A stretch of DNA of 64,000 nt from NCBI GenBank assembly GCA_016212095.1, contig JACRHH010000018.1, forward strand, positions 3,126-67,125, read 5' to 3'. Origin of the DNA: Nitrospirota bacterium. Lineage in GTDB: Bacteria > Nitrospirota > Thermodesulfovibrionia > SZUA-242. The translations under genes were made by a program, and so were the position numbers. Positions 2 through 6,131 of this stretch are shown in pieces. The stretch's first letter is position 1, and every line of letters starts with the position of its first letter. The notes below the pieces were generated by a model that ran no database searches, had not been told where the DNA came from, and was given only the letters and a program-made list of their open reading frames with translations.

Positions 2-151
2 GGCGATGAACAGGCTAAGGAGATTCAGGCACTCTTTGAGTCAACGCGCAAGGGTGATTTCGCTCAAATCCTTGCTGATAAGATAAGCGAGGGGGCGGCT
101 TTCATCGTTCCAGTGTATATAAAGGACGCCATTGAGGCTCTCGTAAAATGA
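2..151 (+). CDS. 3' end of an upstream gene (partial, function unknown)
   Basis: Frame open from window edge (..GDEQAKEIQALFESTRKGDFAQILADKISEGAAFIVPVYIKDAIEALVK), stop TGA 149-151 overlapping the next ATG in an ATGA arrangement. Confidence 0.3.
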   Translation, partial: GDEQAKEIQALFESTRKGDFAQILADKISEGAAFIVPVYIKDAIEALVK

Positions 152-1907
152 ACGGGTGCATGTTCAATCCGACACCAGAGCAGCAAAAGGTCATTTACCA
201 TGAAAGTTCGGCCTTCATAACGGCTTGCCCCGGCGCTGGTAAGACCCGTGTAATGGTCGAACGGGCACGGCATATGCTGCGGACAAACCATAACGGGCGT
301 GGCGTCGCATTTTTGTCGTTTACGCGCGCGGCCGTGTCGGAGCTTGAAGAACGATTGCGGCAGGAAGCATTGCTCTGTTCCCCAGTGTTTCCGCATTTCA
401 TCGGCACATTCGATAGCTTCATATGGCAATTTGTCGTCGCACCGTTTGGAATAACGGGCATAGAAGCCGTGCCTCGCCTTATTCCTGATAAGGGCTGCCG
501 CATAGTTCAGCCCTTCGAAAAGGCCCAGCCCCTTCCTCTTTCCTGTTTTGATCGCGTAACAGGCAAGATTGATGCCGTCGCTACGCTTCGGCTTCGTTTC
601 GATGTAAACAAAAAAAACCGGCTCTCATAAAGGCATTCGAAACCGCTGCCATAAAGATGCAAACCCGGTTCCGTGAACGGGGGGAGCTAGATTTTGACGA
701 TGCGAGGGCGCTGGCTGTAACCCGGCTTCAGTGTGCTGATTTTTCCAAACGGCTCTCCACGGCTCTCGCTGCACGATTCCGTGAAATCATCATTGATGAG
801 GCACAGGACTGCAATCCGGCAGATCTGGATATCATCAGATGGCTTCGTGATGCCGGGATTCCAACAAAGGTAATCTGTGACCCGCACCAGTCAATTTTTG
901 AGTTTCGCGGCGGCGTCACCGATCAGCTTTTCGCCTTTGCCGACACCTTTGGTAATGACGACCAGCTTGGTATGAGCGGGAATTTTCGGTCCAGCGGTAA
1001 TATCTGCAAAGCGATCGTGATGTTAAGGGCGGCAGAGTCCAGAAATATTGTCGATGCGCCATTTGGTGAATTCAAAAACGAGCAGGCACGTATCTGCATT
1101 TTATCCTATTCGAGCAAATCTGTCTCCGCAGCGATCGGTGAGAAATTTGTCAACCTTTTGAAGGAGGTGCAAATTGATGTTGCCAAAGCCCCAGTATTGG
1201 CCGCAACCAAAAACAGCGCATTCAATGCTATCGGCCGGCCGGTGGTCAAAGCGAAAAGGGATCTAACCCTGCGGCTTGCGGAGGCTGTCAGCGATTTTTA
1301 TTTCGCCTTCGAGTCTGGCAAGCAGAAATCCGCAATTGAGAAGTTTCACGCTGTTTTCTTGGAGTTGCAGGGGAGATTGCCTGGCAAAAGCTATTACCAG
1401 TATATGGTCGAGCATGATCTGAAGCCAGACGAATGGCGTCCAGAAATGCTGCAAATTCTTCGTGCGCTCCGGTATGATCCCGAAATTTACGACGATGCTG
1501 ATACATGGCACAACAGCGCGAAGGAGCTTCTCAAACCGTCTCTGCCTCCAAATAGCCCATCAATCTCTCAGAAGCTCAAGAAAAACAAAGACATTGCGGA
1601 CGTTCTTAGACTACCCTCAACTGAGAGTCCGCCGGCAAAGACTATCCATTCGGTGAAAGGGATGGAGTTTCCTGCCGTTTGCATCGTGACGGTTGCTCAG
1701 ACGCTGAAAGGCATTCTGGATTATCTCGAAACAGGTGCGCCGGTTGAGAAAGCCGAAATGGCACGCGAATTTTATGTCGCCGCGTCAAGAGCTCAGCGCC
1801 TTTTGGCAATTGCAGCGCCCAGAAGCCAAGCAGCAAGGTTTGCCGCACACCTTCGAATGGCTGGCGCAACTGTGACTGTGGTAGACATCAATATTGAGAA
1901 GCAGTAA
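148..1907 (+). pseudogene. UvrD/Rep-like superfamily 1 helicase, split into two ORFs (148-630 and 657-1907) by a frameshift at an A8 homopolymer (610-617)
   Basis: Walker A ACPGAGKT, motif Ia LSFTRAA, motif II IIIDEAQD, motif III VICDPHQSIFEFRGG, motifs V/VI KTIHSVKGMEFPAV and YVAASRA; downstream reading frame is open back to 609 across the A-run. Confidence 0.6.
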
Positions 1908-1922
1908 CCATCAGGAGCCCCC

Positions 1923-2762
1923 ATGCCCACCAGCAAGCATAAAAACGCCGTTACACCCGCCACCGGCGAGTTGCTTCTCTACCAGACCGTGGAGGGTAAG
2001 ACGCGGATCGAAGTCCGTATGCAGGATGAAACGGTCTGGTTGAGCCAAAAGCAACTGGCCGATCTGTTTCAGACCTCAATTCCCAACATCAACATGCACA
2101 TTAAAAACATTTTCGATGAAGGTGAGCTTTCCGATGTTTCAGCTATTCAGGAATTCTTAATAACTGCCGCAGACGGCAAGAACTACCAGACAAAATTTTA
2201 CAACCTCGACGTGATCATCTCCGTCGGCTACCGGGTAAACAGCATTCGCGGCACACAGTTCCGCATCTGGGCAACCCAACGGCTGCGGGAATACATCATC
2301 AAAGGGTTTGCAATGGATGACGAACGCCTCAAACAGGCGGGCGGCGGCAATTACTTCGATGAGCTACTGGCCCGCATTCGCGACATCCGGTCGTCGGAAA
2401 AGGTTTTCTGGCGCAAGGTGCTGGATATTTATGCAACCAGCATCGATTATTCCTCGAATACGGAAACCTCGCGCAAATTTTTCGCCGCGATCCAGAACAA
2501 GATGCACTGGGCCGCGGACGGACACACCGCCGCCGAGATCATTCACGAACGGGCAGACGCGGCAAGGCCGAACATGGGATTGACCGCATGGTCGGGCGAC
2601 GCGCCGCGCAAGGCCGATGCTGAGGTGTCGAACAGGTCTGGAACGAAAACCTCTACACCATGCGCGGGCGCGACGTGCATGAGCATGTGCATGAGGAGTC
2701 GTCCCACGATCTTGCCGGTGTGCGAATGGAACGCGCCCTGCCAGTCTGGTCAAGGCGGCTAA
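1923..2762 (+). CDS. RhuM-family protein, C-terminus apparently truncated or out of frame after about codon 235
   Basis: YNLDVIISVGYRVNSIRGTQFRIWATQRLREYIIKGFAMDDERLKQ block matches my recollection of RhuM proteins; last ~45 codons are Cys/Ser/Thr/Pro-rich and overlap the cas4 frame. Confidence 0.55.
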   Translation: MPTSKHKNAVTPATGELLLYQTVEGKTRIEVRMQDETVWLSQKQLADLFQTSIPNINMHIKNIFDEGELSDVSAIQEFLITAADGKNYQTKFYNLDVIISVGYRVNSIRGTQFRIWATQRLREYIIKGFAMDDERLKQAGGGNYFDELLARIRDIRSSEKVFWRKVLDIYATSIDYSSNTETSRKFFAAIQNKMHWAADGHTAAEIIHERADAARPNMGLTAWSGDAPRKADAEVSNRSGTKTSTPCAGATCMSMCMRSRPTILPVCEWNAPCQSGQGG

Positions 2763-3169
2763 ACCTTACCGGAAAGGCCGATATGGTGGAATTCCGCTGT
2801 GACGTTCCGTATCCTGTCGAGTACAAGTCCGGCAGGCAGAGGAAAGGCCGCCACGAGGAACTGCAACTCTGCGCCCAAGCGGTCTGCCTTTCGGAAATGT
2901 TCGGCGTGACGGTGGATCGCGGCGCGATATATTGGCACGGCTCGCGCGAGCGGCGGGAAGTTCCCTTCACTGACTCACTGCGTCTGGAGGTGGAACACGT
3001 TGCAGCCGCAGTGCATGAAATGATGGCGGGTTCGACGATTCCCCCGCCTGTAAACGACAAGCGATGCCGCGATTGCTCGCTCAGGGAATCGTGCCTGCCG
3101 AATGTGGTGGCGGCAAAGGGAAGAAGCCGCAAGGCTGTGCTGGAACTTTTCGAGGTGATGACGCCATGA
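2624..3169 (+). CDS. cas4: Cas4 RecB-like nuclease, 5'-truncated (first ATG at 2660; frame open from 2624)
   Basis: RecB-nuclease-type D..E.K pattern (GKADMVE...VEYKSG), QLCAQAVCLSEMFG, C-terminal Cys cluster CRDCSLRESC; the N-terminal region that normally carries the first Cys ligand is absent (in-frame stop at 2621-2623). Confidence 0.65.
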   Translation, partial: GVEQVWNENLYTMRGRDVHEHVHEESSHDLAGVRMERALPVWSRRLNLTGKADMVEFRCDVPYPVEYKSGRQRKGRHEELQLCAQAVCLSEMFGVTVDRGAIYWHGSRERREVPFTDSLRLEVEHVAAAVHEMMAGSTIPPPVNDKRCRDCSLRESCLPNVVAAKGRSRKAVLELFEVMTP

Positions 3170-4200
3170 AACAACTCCTTAACACGCTGTACGTCATGAC
3201 GCAGGGCGCGTATGTCTGCCTAGACCACGAAACGGTGAAGGTGGAGGTGGAGGGAAAAGTTCGGATGCAGGTTCCGCTTCATCACATCGGCTCGATTGTG
3301 ACGATGGGCAACGTAATGCTAAGCCCGTTTATCATGGGCCGATGCGCCGACGACGGCAGGGCGATTGTGATTCTGGGCAGAAGCGGACGCTTCAAGTGCC
3401 GTGTTGTCGGCAAGACAAGCGGCAACGTGCTTCTTCGTCATGCCCAGCACGAGGCGGTGCGCGATGGCGGGAAATCGATCCCGATTGCCCGCAACATCGT
3501 GGCCGGGAAGGTGAAAAACGCCAGACATATTCTACTGCGCGGAGCGCGCGAGGCCGACAACGCCGATGACGCAGGCGTTCTGAAAAACGCAGCCGACATT
3601 CTGGCCAATACGCTGTTTCATCTCAAGGATTGCGCCGACATCGACCGGGTGCGCGGCATAGAGGGCGAGGCGGCGAACGCCTATTTCGGCGTATTCGACC
3701 GGATGGTGAAGGAAGAAGCGCGCACGGTTTTCAGGTTCGACGGAAGAAACCGCCGTCCGCCGCTCGATCCGATGAACGCACTGCTGTCGTTTCTCTACAC
3801 GCTTTTGCTGTCCGACTGCGTAAGCGCGGCTGAAGGCGTGGGCCTCGATTCCCAGATGGGTTTTCTGCATGTGATGCGGCCCGGACGCCCGTCGCTGGGG
3901 CTGGACATGATGGAGGAATTCCGCGCCGTTCTGGCCGACAGGCTGGCGCTTACACTGATAAACCGCCGTCAGATAACGGAAAATCATTTCGAGCCAAGGC
4001 CCGGCGGCGCGGTTTACTTAAACGAAGACGGGCGCAAAACAGTTGTGACCGAATACCAGAAGCGCAAGCAGGACGAGCTTCATCATCCGCTGCTTGATGA
4101 AAAAGCGCCGTTCGGGCTTGTTCCGCACATTCAGGCCCGGCTTCTTGCGCGTCACCTTCGCGGCGACATGGATGAATATGTGCCGTTTTTGTATTCCTGA
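3166..4200 (+). CDS. cas1: Cas1 integrase (type I-C-like)
   Basis: ATGA overlap with cas4 stop; 344 aa; N-terminus [26 protein letters not shown] typical of Cas1; position cas4-cas1-cas2-array. Confidence 0.85.
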
Positions 4201-4214
4201 GCGAGGGCAAAACT

Positions 4215-4508
4215 GTGTGGGTGCTTGTATCGTATGACGTTTCCACCGAAACGCCGGAAGGCCGCAAAAGGCTCCGCCGCGTGGCGCAGATATGCAAGAA
4301 CTATGGACAGCGAGTGCAGAAATCGGTGTTCGAGTGTCAGGTGAACGAGATGAAGTTCGAGGAACTGCGGCGCGAGCTATTGCGGATTATCAATAAGGAT
4401 GAGGATAACCTGCGGCTCTATCGCCTGACGGAGCCACGGGAGCGGCATGTGGAAAGCTACGGCTTGATCAAAACGATATTGTTTGACGACGAGCCGCTGA
4501 TTGCGTAG
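4215..4508 (+). CDS. cas2: Cas2 (GTG start)
   Basis: 97 aa, [10 protein letters not shown]...[23 protein letters not shown] typical Cas2; directly after cas1 and before the repeats. Confidence 0.8.
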
Positions 4509-4598
4509 CGCGAACCTGTTGTGCATGAGAAAATGCCGGGAGGTTCGCGGATGGCGCAACAGCTTGATTATTGGAACATTTATTTGAAGCCGTCAAGC

Positions 4599-4794
4599 GT
4601 TGCGTCCGGTCGCAAGACCGGGCGAGGATTGAAACGCGGAAAGGATGGTATAACTTGCTGTAAGTTCACGCTACAACAGCGTGAGCGTCGCGCCCGGTCG
4701 CAAGACCGGGCGAGGATTGAAACCGGTCGTCTCTCTCCGCGCTGGTTATCAGGCACGGTCGCGCCCGGTCGCAAGACCGGGCGAGGATTGAAAC
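4599..4794 (+). CRISPR. CRISPR mini-array: three 37-bp repeats (4599-4635, 4687-4723, 4758-4794), spacers of 51 and 34 bp
   Basis: Consensus GTCGCGCCCGGTCGCAAGACCGGGCGAGGATTGAAAC with 9-bp stem/GCAA loop and ATTGAAAC 3' handle typical of type I-C; first repeat has 2 mismatches. Confidence 0.75.
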
Positions 4795-4805
4795 TGCGCG
4801 GCGGC

Positions 4806-4823
4806 GCATCGCAATGCGTCTCT
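4806..4823. repeat. Partial inverted copy of the palindromic element that is tandemly repeated at 6042-6131
   Basis: GCATCGCAATGCGTCTCT matches the reverse complement of the 30-bp unit core (GACGCATCGCAATGCGTCT). Confidence 0.3.
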
Positions 4824-5343
4824 ACCTGCACGCGGCCTGCACCGTTGAGATTGGCAGAAATAGTTGCAGTGGATGATCTGGAATCGCCAGAAACCCGAAT
4901 TGCTCATAAAATCGTCCGGCTTCGTCATCCTTTGCATCGACAAAGAGGCCGATTACGCCTGCATGTCCAGCGATAAGCGATGTCCGGTGAACCGCATCGG
5001 CAAGCAGCAGTTTGCCGTACCCTTTGCCCTGTTCCTTCCGGGATACCGCAAGACGGGCAAGACGCACCGCAGGCAGACCATGCAGCGGGTATTTCCGGGC
5101 ATAATCATCAGGAAGTTGCTCGACAGACAATTCGCAGAGCGTGAGAGTGTAGAAGCCGAGCATGGCTGGCGTGCCGGCGGTCAGCACGAATGTCCGTGAA
5201 ATACCTTTCGACGAATGCTGACGCGCGATTGTCCGGAGGAACTCGTTCAGCGCCGGAACGCCGCAGTCGAAACCGTTACGGTCATGGATGCGGTCAAGAA
5301 GGGTTATTTCCGGCAATGGTTTTATTGTGCTGACGCATGGCAT
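4822..5343 (-). CDS. GNAT-family acetyltransferase toxin (TacT-like)
   Basis: 173 aa; acetyl-CoA motif RLAVSRKEQGKGYGKLL; paired with an upstream DUF1778-type gene. Confidence 0.7.
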   Translation of the reverse strand: MPCVSTIKPLPEITLLDRIHDRNGFDCGVPALNEFLRTIARQHSSKGISRTFVLTAGTPAMLGFYTLTLCELSVEQLPDDYARKYPLHGLPAVRLARLAVSRKEQGKGYGKLLLADAVHRTSLIAGHAGVIGLFVDAKDDEAGRFYEQFGFLAIPDHPLQLFLPISTVQAACR

Positions 5344-5584
5344 CCATCAGGTATTCGTTCGGTTCAGGCGGATTCTCGATGAGCGAAAACACCGCATCCG
5401 CCGAAGCGGTTGAAAGCTTGATTATGCGCTCTCCCTCAAGAATCGCATTGGCTTTCTCAAGGGCGGACTGGACGACAAACTGGTTAAGCGTTGCGCCAAC
5501 CGATTGAGCGGCTTCCAGTATCCGCTCATACACGGCTGTCGGCATACGGGCCGGTATTCGTTCCTCGGCGATTGTGCGTGCCAT
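5294..5584 (-). CDS. DUF1778-family antitoxin (TacA-like), start at the internal ATG 5584
   Basis: MARTIAEERIPARMPTAVYERILEAAQSVGATLNQFVVQSALEKANAIL; GGAGGTGA ribosome-binding site before the ATG; overlaps toxin start. Confidence 0.65.
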   Translation of the reverse strand: MARTIAEERIPARMPTAVYERILEAAQSVGATLNQFVVQSALEKANAILEGERIIKLSTASADAVFSLIENPPEPNEYLMDAMRQHNKTIAGNNPS

Positions 5585-5681
5585 TGATGTCACCTCCGGA
5601 TAGATTTTAATAAGGTGGCGCCAAAATGGCAACTTTATAATCGTTTCCGCCCGGCATATACTAGACCGTGCAAGGATCGAA

Positions 5682-6041
5682 ATGTTGAAGTCTAATTCTG
5701 ATGGCATTGTCTACTCCACCGGGCAGGGCAGAATCTGTTCCGCCTGCGGCAGGCCCGCGGCCAACTGCGAATGCGGCCGCAGGCAAGCGCCGCCAAATGG
5801 CGATGGAATCGTCCGTGTCGGCATCTCGACGAAAGGCCGCAAGGGCAAGGGTGTTACCGTGATCAGCGGCGTTCCCCCTGGCGAAGGCGGTCTCGACGAG
5901 TTGGCGCGGCGGCTCAAGCAGAAATGCGGGGCCGGAGGAACCGTGAAGGACGGCGTTATCGAAATTCAGGGCGATTTCCGCGACATCCTGGTGGCGGAAC
6001 TGACGAAACAGGGCTACAAGGTGAAACGCGCTGGCGGGTAG
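5682..6041 (+). CDS. yciH: Translation initiation factor SUI1/YciH family protein
   Basis: GKGVTVISGV...KCGAGGTVKDGVIEIQGDFRD..L...GYKVKRAGG matches the SUI1 fold signature. Confidence 0.7.
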   Translation: MLKSNSDGIVYSTGQGRICSACGRPAANCECGRRQAPPNGDGIVRVGISTKGRKGKGVTVISGVPPGEGGLDELARRLKQKCGAGGTVKDGVIEIQGDFRDILVAELTKQGYKVKRAGG

Positions 6042-6131
6042 AGACGCATTGCGATGCGTCTCTGCTGATCAAGACGCATTATGATGCGTCTCTGCTGATC
6101 AAGACGCATTATGATGCGTCTCTACTGTTCG
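6042..6131. repeat. Three tandem copies of a 30-bp unit, each containing an 8-bp-arm palindrome
   Basis: AGACGCATT(GC/AT)GATGCGTCTCTGCTGATCA x3 immediately after the yciH stop. Confidence 0.8.

Follow-up and report, generated by a model that had tools for sequence, protein, structure and literature searches.

The window, by which we mean the whole 64-kb stretch of DNA analyzed here, begins within a Gabija defense system and continues into the adaptation genes, leader and short array of what is very probably a recently broken type I-C CRISPR-Cas locus. The window edge cuts gajA, the Gabija ATPase/nuclease gene, of which only the 3' end is present (positions 2 to 145, plus strand; PADLOC GajA, E = 1.6e-18, positions 571 to 618 of 619). 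The adjoining gajB (148 to 1907, plus strand; PADLOC GajB), for the Gabija UvrD-like helicase, is divided between two frames (148 to 630 and 657 to 1907) that match GajB model positions 5 to 156 (E = 1.6e-73) and 167 to 577 (E = 1e-174), respectively. The split lies near an A8 run at 610 to 617 and reflects either a frameshift that makes gajB a pseudogene or a sequencing error.

Look-ups of the window's Cas1 and Cas2 by identical sequence gave no record; the closest relative, L048, emerged from the listing of the window's Cas1 cluster, of which it is the second member, and lies on a 5.2-kb Logan contig. Its Cas1 is 95% identical in amino acid sequence to that of the window, and nucleotide identity is 88% over 2.1 kb. 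L048 comprises the 3' end of cas7, an intact rhuM (346 aa), an intact cas4 (209 aa), cas1, cas2, a 178-nt leader, and one repeat. By blastn, L048 positions 362 to 1070 correspond to window positions 1919 to 2627 (84%), and L048 positions 1481 to 3579 correspond to window positions 2628 to 4723 (88%). Homology begins only at 1919, 3' of gajB, which sits where L048 has cas7. Relative to L048, everything upstream of rhuM has been lost at this breakpoint and Gabija is found there instead.

The shared region opens with a 3'-truncated rhuM (1923 to 2627, plus strand), recognized by PF13310 (Pfam RhuM, positions 2 to 168 of 252) and PADLOC PDC-S05 (positions 6 to 227 of 330), and directly followed by a 5'-truncated cas4 (2628 to 3169, plus strand; TIGR00372 model positions 34 to 180). 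The BLASTP alignment of the latter begins at residue 20 of a 199-aa ortholog. Missing from the window are the 410 bp at L048 positions 1071 to 1480, and with them the end of rhuM and ~28 codons from the start of cas4. As read from the alignment, a precise 410-bp deletion fuses rhuM to cas4 at 2627/2628; the rhuM open frame continues across the joint to 2762, while cas4 has its first usable ATG at 2660 and an in-frame stop at 2621 to 2623. The damage to cas4 noted in the original prediction is thus the loss of its 5' end through this deletion.

Both remaining adaptation genes are intact. The type I-C cas1 (3166 to 4200, plus strand; 344 aa) scores 516.6 bits against TIGR03640 (cutoff, 385), encodes a protein 100% identical to MBI5142021.1 from a Nitrospirota metagenome-assembled genome (MAG), and retains every column that is invariant across 12 aligned homologs. 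It is followed by cas2 (4215 to 4508, plus strand; 97 aa; TIGR01573, 72.3 bits). tblastn searches with the type I-C proteins of a complete related locus (L035) found cas4, cas1, and cas2 and no cas3, cas5, cas8c, or cas7 in the 64-kb window, which covers about half of a 123-kb contig, in agreement with the earlier statement that effector genes are missing; it is these and an intact cas4 that the window lacks for a complete type I-C system. Values of dN/dS relative to L048 were 0.084 for cas1, 0.09 for cas2, and 0.18 for cas4. The idea that selection on these two adaptation genes, cas1 and cas2, has relaxed in the window lineage was rejected, as derived amino acid changes show no excess there (5 versus 6 in Cas1 and 1 versus 3 in Cas2). 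Because both genes remain intact, with no sign of relaxed selection, the decay events appear recent; either the damage is recent or cas1 and cas2 are still in use, perhaps together with effectors encoded at another genomic location.

Accessory genes were also observed in other operons. In L048 (366 to 2025), rhuM is placed between cas7 and cas4, with an 11-nt overlap with the latter, and in L035/L036 (8161 to 10004) the place between a DUF559-Cas4 fusion and cas1 is occupied by a Bro-N domain gene. Such genes may represent a recurring association with type I-C adaptation modules.

Downstream of the array, a minus-strand tacA/tacT-like pair (4822 to 5707) encodes GNAT toxin and TacA antitoxin domains. 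A palindrome, GCGCAT-CGCA-ATGCGTCTCT (4804 to 4823), lies 9 bp past the last repeat and just after the stop of the tacT-like GNAT gene. The motif AGAGACGCAT-N4-ATGCGTCTCT has 7 matches versus 0.01 expected, with three tandem 30-bp copies at 6040 to 6123, upstream of the tacA-like gene. Judged by sequence and position, these palindromes are probably toxin-antitoxin operator sites. The toxin-antitoxin cassette may have truncated the array.

Repeat copies and the extent of the leader

A 37-nt repeat, GTCGCGCCCGGTCGCAAGACCGGGCGAGGATTGAAAC, is present on the plus strand as two exact copies (4687 to 4723 and 4758 to 4794) and as a third, upstream copy at 4599 to 4635 that is identical at 35/37 positions (mismatches C3T and C7T). 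The intervals between the three are 51 bp (4636 to 4686) and 34 bp (4724 to 4757). Scores against Rfam CRISPR-DR9 (RF01322) were 54, 54, and 47.7 bits, the last for the upstream copy, and all three (3/3) passed the gathering score of 45 bits. No further copies were detected in the 64 kb (0 expected by chance), and the exact repeat core had 0 matches in the two large genome and metagenome collections scanned. The repeat scan and DR9 scores thus confirm the layout described in the original prediction, that is, three repeats of which the leader-proximal one carries two substitutions, spaced by 51 and 34 bp. Two further possibilities raised there, a repeat hidden in the 51-bp interval and an array continuing past 4794, were not borne out: in 4636 to 4686, and likewise in 4795 to 4994 beyond the last repeat, the best local match to the repeat did not exceed the shuffled mean.

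What did not survive were the labels "first repeat" and "first spacer." Cas1-based searches recovered 36 related I-C loci, mostly from Geobacteraceae and some from Nitrospirota, with Cas1 72 to 79% identical to that of the window. Complete relatives have the order cas3-cas5-cas8c-cas7-cas4-cas1-cas2, followed by arrays with a period of 70 to 74 bp. Spacers in related arrays are 32 to 40 nt long (n = 325); a length of 34 nt is typical, and 51 nt was never seen. Between the cas2 stop and the first repeat, related I-C loci (28 loci) have 170 to 181 nt and L048 has 178 nt. In the window, 178 nt separate the cas2 stop from the second repeat copy (4509 to 4686), an agreement with L048 that is partly coincidental, as the A region of the leader also has small indels. 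Comparison with related loci therefore contradicts an array of three repeats, the 178-nt leader running to 4686.

Several lines of evidence support this extent of the leader (4509 to 4686, plus strand). In a multiple alignment (MAFFT), the segment is collinear along its full length with the homologous leaders of the related I-C loci. An nhmmer profile built from the leaders of 25 relatives gave one match, at 4502 to 4667 (envelope to 4681; E = 2.6e-14), which passes straight through the upstream repeat copy. When the profile was restricted to the last 51 leader nt of the 25 relatives, with the repeat excluded, the best match in the whole window was at 4636 (E = 9.7e-4), and in register: model position 1 corresponds to the first base of the supposed 51-bp spacer. 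An alignment of 27 sequences and 51 columns is essentially gap-free (one gap, in a locus designated L039), and the window has 8/8 of the invariant or near-invariant columns (G1, C2, A6, T16, A17, A18, G25, and A27). Compared with the final 51 nt of the L048 leader, the segment is identical at 45/51 positions (88%), with no gaps. On this alignment evidence, the "51-bp spacer" (4636 to 4686, plus strand) is a conserved, repeat-proximal leader module and not an acquired spacer, and the comparison shows the leader-repeat junction at 4686/4687.

The real CRISPR array is confined to 4687 to 4794. It consists of the true first repeat (4687 to 4723, plus strand), which had been counted as the second; its only spacer, of typical length (34 nt; 4724 to 4757, plus strand); and the second and last repeat (4758 to 4794, plus strand), a perfect copy with no repeat-like sequence 3' of it. 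This stretch combines DR9 repeats and a spacer within the 32- to 40-nt range with adjoining type I-C adaptation genes (Cas1c, Cas2, and Cas4) and leader (leader profile E = 2.6e-14). The unit at 4599 to 4686 has an interval of 51 nt, outside the 32- to 40-nt range, and is also homologous to the leader. The window and L048 both derive from metagenome assemblies, in which arrays may collapse, so that the counts of one spacer in the window and none in L048 are lower bounds.

No protospacer of the 34-nt spacer was found among INPHARED phages, PLSDB plasmids, and IMG/VR (exact matches only), nor was there a second copy in the window. Environmental spacers commonly lack a match.

Within the 51-nt module, a GCGGAAA start is followed by an IHF-like TAAC-N4-TG motif and a hairpin, TCACGCT-ACAAC-AGCGTGA, at 4666 to 4684. 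An IHF core is also resembled, by sequence, on the minus strand of TAAC-N4-TTG (CAA-N4-TTA). The hairpin before the first repeat covaries in the relatives (covariation of 0.316 versus 0.164 in shuffles; 0/500), and a compensatory change was found at 4668/4682 (A-T in the window, G-C in L048). Together, covariation and compensation suggest a functional leader-proximal hairpin or palindrome. A second predicted stem, the cas2-proximal hairpin GCGAACC ... GGTTCGC (4509 to 4549, plus strand), is present in all aligned leaders. A promoter and terminator scan of 4100 to 5000 predicted nothing on the plus strand of the leader, a sigma-70-like promoter included.

Two models of leader structure were rejected. 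If the leader were built of ~88-nt modules (repeat plus 51 nt), an autocorrelation peak near 88 would be expected, and the relatives have none; in the window, the resemblance between regions A and B was not significant (p = 0.15). Nor did RNAalifold predict any covarying stem that would span the X/B boundary and present the TTCGC motif; stems of this kind occur in only a subset of loci. As a separate observation, in many relatives the locus's own repeat finds its best local match in the leader-start hairpin with its 3' flank (GCGCGAACC ... GGGGGTGTTCGCGATGTTTGAAA; window 4509 to 4560; L001 to L046), with matches falling on diagonals -153 to -158 and -174 to -188. These matches suggest that the leader start may be an old repeat-like element.

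Composition and origin of the upstream repeat copy

The single repeat of L048 is identical at 37/37 positions to window positions 4687 to 4723, where homology between the two loci stops. It is thus the ortholog of the window's second repeat copy. At the place of the upstream copy, L048 has ATTGCGTTCCGTCTTTGGGGGCATCGGACAGGATC, an ordinary leader sequence ending in CAGGATC, where outgroups end in CAGGTTC. The first seven bases of the upstream copy agree with the L048 leader at 6/7 positions, whereas bases 8 to 37 agree at only 13/28, against 88 to 89% identity in the flanks. The two apparent substitutions, T3 and T7, match the L048 leader bases (TTGCGT in L048), and they are therefore retained leader bases. 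The alignment with L048 thus shows the upstream copy (4599 to 4635, plus strand) as a chimera, with a leader-derived 5' end (bases 1 to 7, GTTGCGT) and a repeat-derived patch of ~30 nt (bases ~8 to 37, roughly 4606 to 4635) whose bases equal those of the array repeat.

The suggestion that the array is decaying is accordingly upheld in part. Decay of the locus is supported by the upstream loss and the 410-bp deletion; the argument from a degenerate repeat and a 51-bp spacer fails, and cas1 and cas2 show no decay.

The L048 repeat (3543 to 3579) stands alone, with no spacer, after a full-length leader and is followed by unrelated DNA. It could be either an "empty" array or the product of an assembly collapse. 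The window spacer is not homologous to the sequence trailing the L048 repeat (p = 0.73).

Outgroup loci were used to polarize the change. None of 28 (25 Geobacter type and 3 Nitrospirota; 0/28) has a repeat-like sequence at the place of the upstream copy, and L048 shares their CAGG(A/T)TC end there. As these 28 loci lack any such sequence, the comparison shows the patch to be derived in the window lineage. Overall, it is highly likely that the locus is a type I-C remnant whose real array has two repeats and one spacer and in which ~30 nt of the 178-nt leader were overwritten by repeat sequence.

The overwriting sequence would have been that of the neighboring repeat, 88 bp downstream. The patch starts at a leader motif, GTTGCGT-CCG-TC, that already resembles the repeat 5' end, and it stops at the very point where the conserved 51-nt repeat-proximal module begins. 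At the 5' edge, leader TTGCGT(T)CCG-TC resembles repeat TCGCGC-CCGGTC, and at the 3' edge leader AGGAT-C resembles repeat AGGATTGAAAC, although the microhomology is only ~5 nt. We infer a short-patch gene conversion or a template switch from the adjacent repeat, which may have relied on short matches at either edge, CCG(G)TC at the 5' edge and AGGAT...C at the 3' edge. Either process would give the observed chimera and leave the 51-nt module intact. Tandem duplication followed by deletion, self-spacer integration, and ectopic integration were also considered; they need more steps or predict the wrong length.

The patch would have removed motifs that relatives keep at this place, namely TGCTCAGGC ... 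CAGG(T/A)TC and the second GGTTC|GCG. Type I-C leaders have several IHF sites and subtype-specific motifs up to 100 to 200 bp upstream (bioRxiv 10.1101/2023.05.26.542337). In the aligned leaders, conserved phased motifs likewise lie upstream of the first repeat, and the window's -88 to -52 block is replaced. As conserved motifs are removed and I-C leaders use upstream motifs, leader-guided spacer integration is plausibly impaired by the patch.

A second locus and alternative explanations

A metagenome scan for the 3' end of a repeat abutting the leader module (GGATTGAAACGCRRRA-N9-TAAC) gave, besides chance spacers, a single real case, L039 (positions 1 to 470 of an independent groundwater contig). 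There, the end of cas2 is followed by a 180-nt leader and an I-C array of four 32-nt repeats, the last with one mismatch. A repeat-like segment ending in GTGGATTGAAAC lies in the leader 50 nt before the first repeat and resembles the locus's own 32-nt repeat at z = 5.9, with the repeat stem broken in this copy. Taken with the window, L039 implies that this kind of overwrite arose on at least two occasions, in loci that differ in their repeats and have small arrays. The architecture is rare, with 1 match in the metagenome scan and 0/28 among relatives, and a literature search for leader-embedded repeats found nothing specific. The likeness of L039 is a curiosity and not a sign of a new system.

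A bolder reading draws support from the two independent cases, the window and L039. The 37-bp segment, one 51-bp module upstream of the integration site, might be a docking site that the Cas4-Cas1-Cas2 integrase or the folded leader handles as a repeat, so that repeat sequence could recurrently be written into it and tolerated. Alternatively, the repeat-leader-repeat unit might give rise to a leader-derived crRNA-like RNA. We regard this as unlikely. Either version, if true, would provide a natural experiment in the guidance of integration by I-C leaders.

The polarity of the change could also be reversed, with an ancestral leader-embedded repeat that decayed in L048 and the other relatives and was kept in the window as a fossil. 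Both ends of the L048 segment do bear a weak likeness to the repeat (global z = 1.7, p = 0.06), GTTGCGYCC occurs at this place in some relatives, and similarity over 12 nt of the 5' end peaks ~2 SD above the mean at offsets of -84 to -86, although such peaks are not unique to this offset. The L039 copy, at the same place, could pass for half decayed. However, the corresponding segment of 25 relatives matches their own repeats no better than shuffled sequence (mean z, 0.21; 26% identity versus a 25% background), and only 1/26 best local matches falls on that diagonal, so that the idea of a decayed copy of the relatives' own repeat was not supported. Moreover, with flanks that are 88 to 89% identical, neutral decay predicts ~4 differences in 37 nt where 17 are seen, and L048 has the outgroup-type CAGG(A/T)TC end. 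An ancestral repeat is thus quite improbable, and overwriting in the window lineage remains the preferred explanation.

Alternatively, the upstream copy, the 51 nt, and the first array repeat could form a functional mini-array yielding a Cas5c-processed crRNA-like RNA that regulates cas genes or is used in targeting. Such a product would carry a AUUGAAAC 5' handle followed by 4636 to 4686, and a processed leader-derived RNA from this unit is conceivable on sequence grounds: the upstream copy keeps the stem-loop and the ATTGAAAC 5' handle, and the corresponding segment of L039 resembles a repeat at its 3' end. Mini-arrays having spacers of 20 to 60 bp and one imperfect repeat have been described in other class 1 loci (bioRxiv 10.1101/2023.03.03.530964). 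Against this, phage and viral collections contained no protospacer of the 51-nt segment, and the window had no full or partial target with a PAM; a search for TTC-flanked matches with ≤3 mismatches to the first 19 nt recovered only the segment itself. In addition, there are no Cas5c or Cascade genes in the 64-kb window, the supposed spacer is conserved as leader in loci without an upstream repeat, the repeat stem of the L039 copy is broken, and the architecture is rare. Taken together, a functional mini-array is very improbable.

A genuine three-repeat array, with a decayed leader-proximal repeat, an aberrant 51-bp acquired spacer, and a leader limited to 4509 to 4598, can be given hardly any credence. 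All three repeats do exceed the Rfam DR9 threshold, and both changes in the upstream copy are C-to-T transitions, of which C7T keeps the stem as a G-U pair. Yet these two "mutations" are the L048 leader bases, and the 51 bp are 88% identical without gaps to the L048 leader and align in register with those of 27 leaders. Leaders of the family measure 170 to 181 nt, about twice the 90 nt that this reading would leave, as opposed to the 178 nt of 4509 to 4686, and 0/325 related spacers exceed 40 nt, with no protospacer for the segment.

Finally, an assembly artifact, in which the leader copy or the short array arose from misassembled repeats in a metagenome bin, is scarcely believable: the sequence does come from a MAG, and two large collections lack the exact repeat, so that there is no independent copy of the locus, but the upstream copy has unique bases and lies between unique, collinear leader segments, graph collapse would delete or join segments rather than replace 30 nt in register, and L039 has the same kind of structure in an independent assembly.

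Relation to known systems and implications

From the alignments, what lies here is a type I-C leader in which a chimeric repeat copy is embedded, with an array of two repeats after it. Canonical type I-C (Dvulg) loci of Geobacter/Geotalea and Nitrospirota have the gene order given above, then leader and array, with DR9 repeats. The window resembles them in its Cas1 (72 to 79% identical, and 95% to L048), the conserved cas4-cas1-cas2 order, a 37-nt repeat ending in ATTGAAAC, a 34-nt spacer, and a homologous 178-nt leader. It differs in having Gabija instead of effector genes, a truncated cas4, one spacer, and the repeat patch in the leader.

Degenerate terminal repeats are a familiar feature of CRISPR arrays, in which the trailer-end repeat is often mutated. 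The upstream copy similarly differs from the consensus by point differences. Unlike such repeats, however, it lies on the leader side and its differences are retained leader bases, not mutations that have accumulated, whereas the terminal repeat (4758 to 4794) is perfect.

The leaders of types I-C, I-E, and I-F are described by Santiago-Frangos et al., as relayed in bioRxiv 10.1101/2023.05.26.542337, as carrying IHF sites together with upstream motifs to guide integration by Cas1-Cas2. Like the multimotif leaders outlined in that account, those of the window's family are long, with position-specific motifs 50 to 180 bp upstream of the first repeat, including a TAAC-N4-TG(G)AAAC element (IHF-like by sequence) and TTCGCG motifs. 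In contrast to the leaders outlined there, the window's conserved block from -88 to -52 is replaced by repeat sequence.

Some likeness also exists to regulatory mini-arrays, solitary repeat units, and cr-like RNAs (bioRxiv 10.1101/2023.03.03.530964). As in those, an extra imperfect repeat lies outside the array, and the 51 bp of nonacquired sequence are within the 20- to 60-bp range described. However, the window copy is inside a functional-type leader and not between cas genes, the interval is conserved leader with no detectable target, and the copy was derived by overwriting in a lineage that lost its effector.

Overall, the locus departs from a well-known system only as a minor structural variant, is not a new system, and is of modest interest. 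Its practical consequence is that repeat finders would report an array of three repeats and a 51-bp spacer at this site, and such a call would mislead spacer catalogues, the definition of the leader, and array-orientation logic. The locus also offers a dated snapshot of type I-C breakdown, in which the effectors were replaced by another defense system, cas4 suffered a deletion, the leader was overwritten, and the array is minimal, while cas1 and cas2 are pristine. That repeat sequence would have overwritten the leader twice independently, at the same leader position, provides a small, testable hint on leader architecture.
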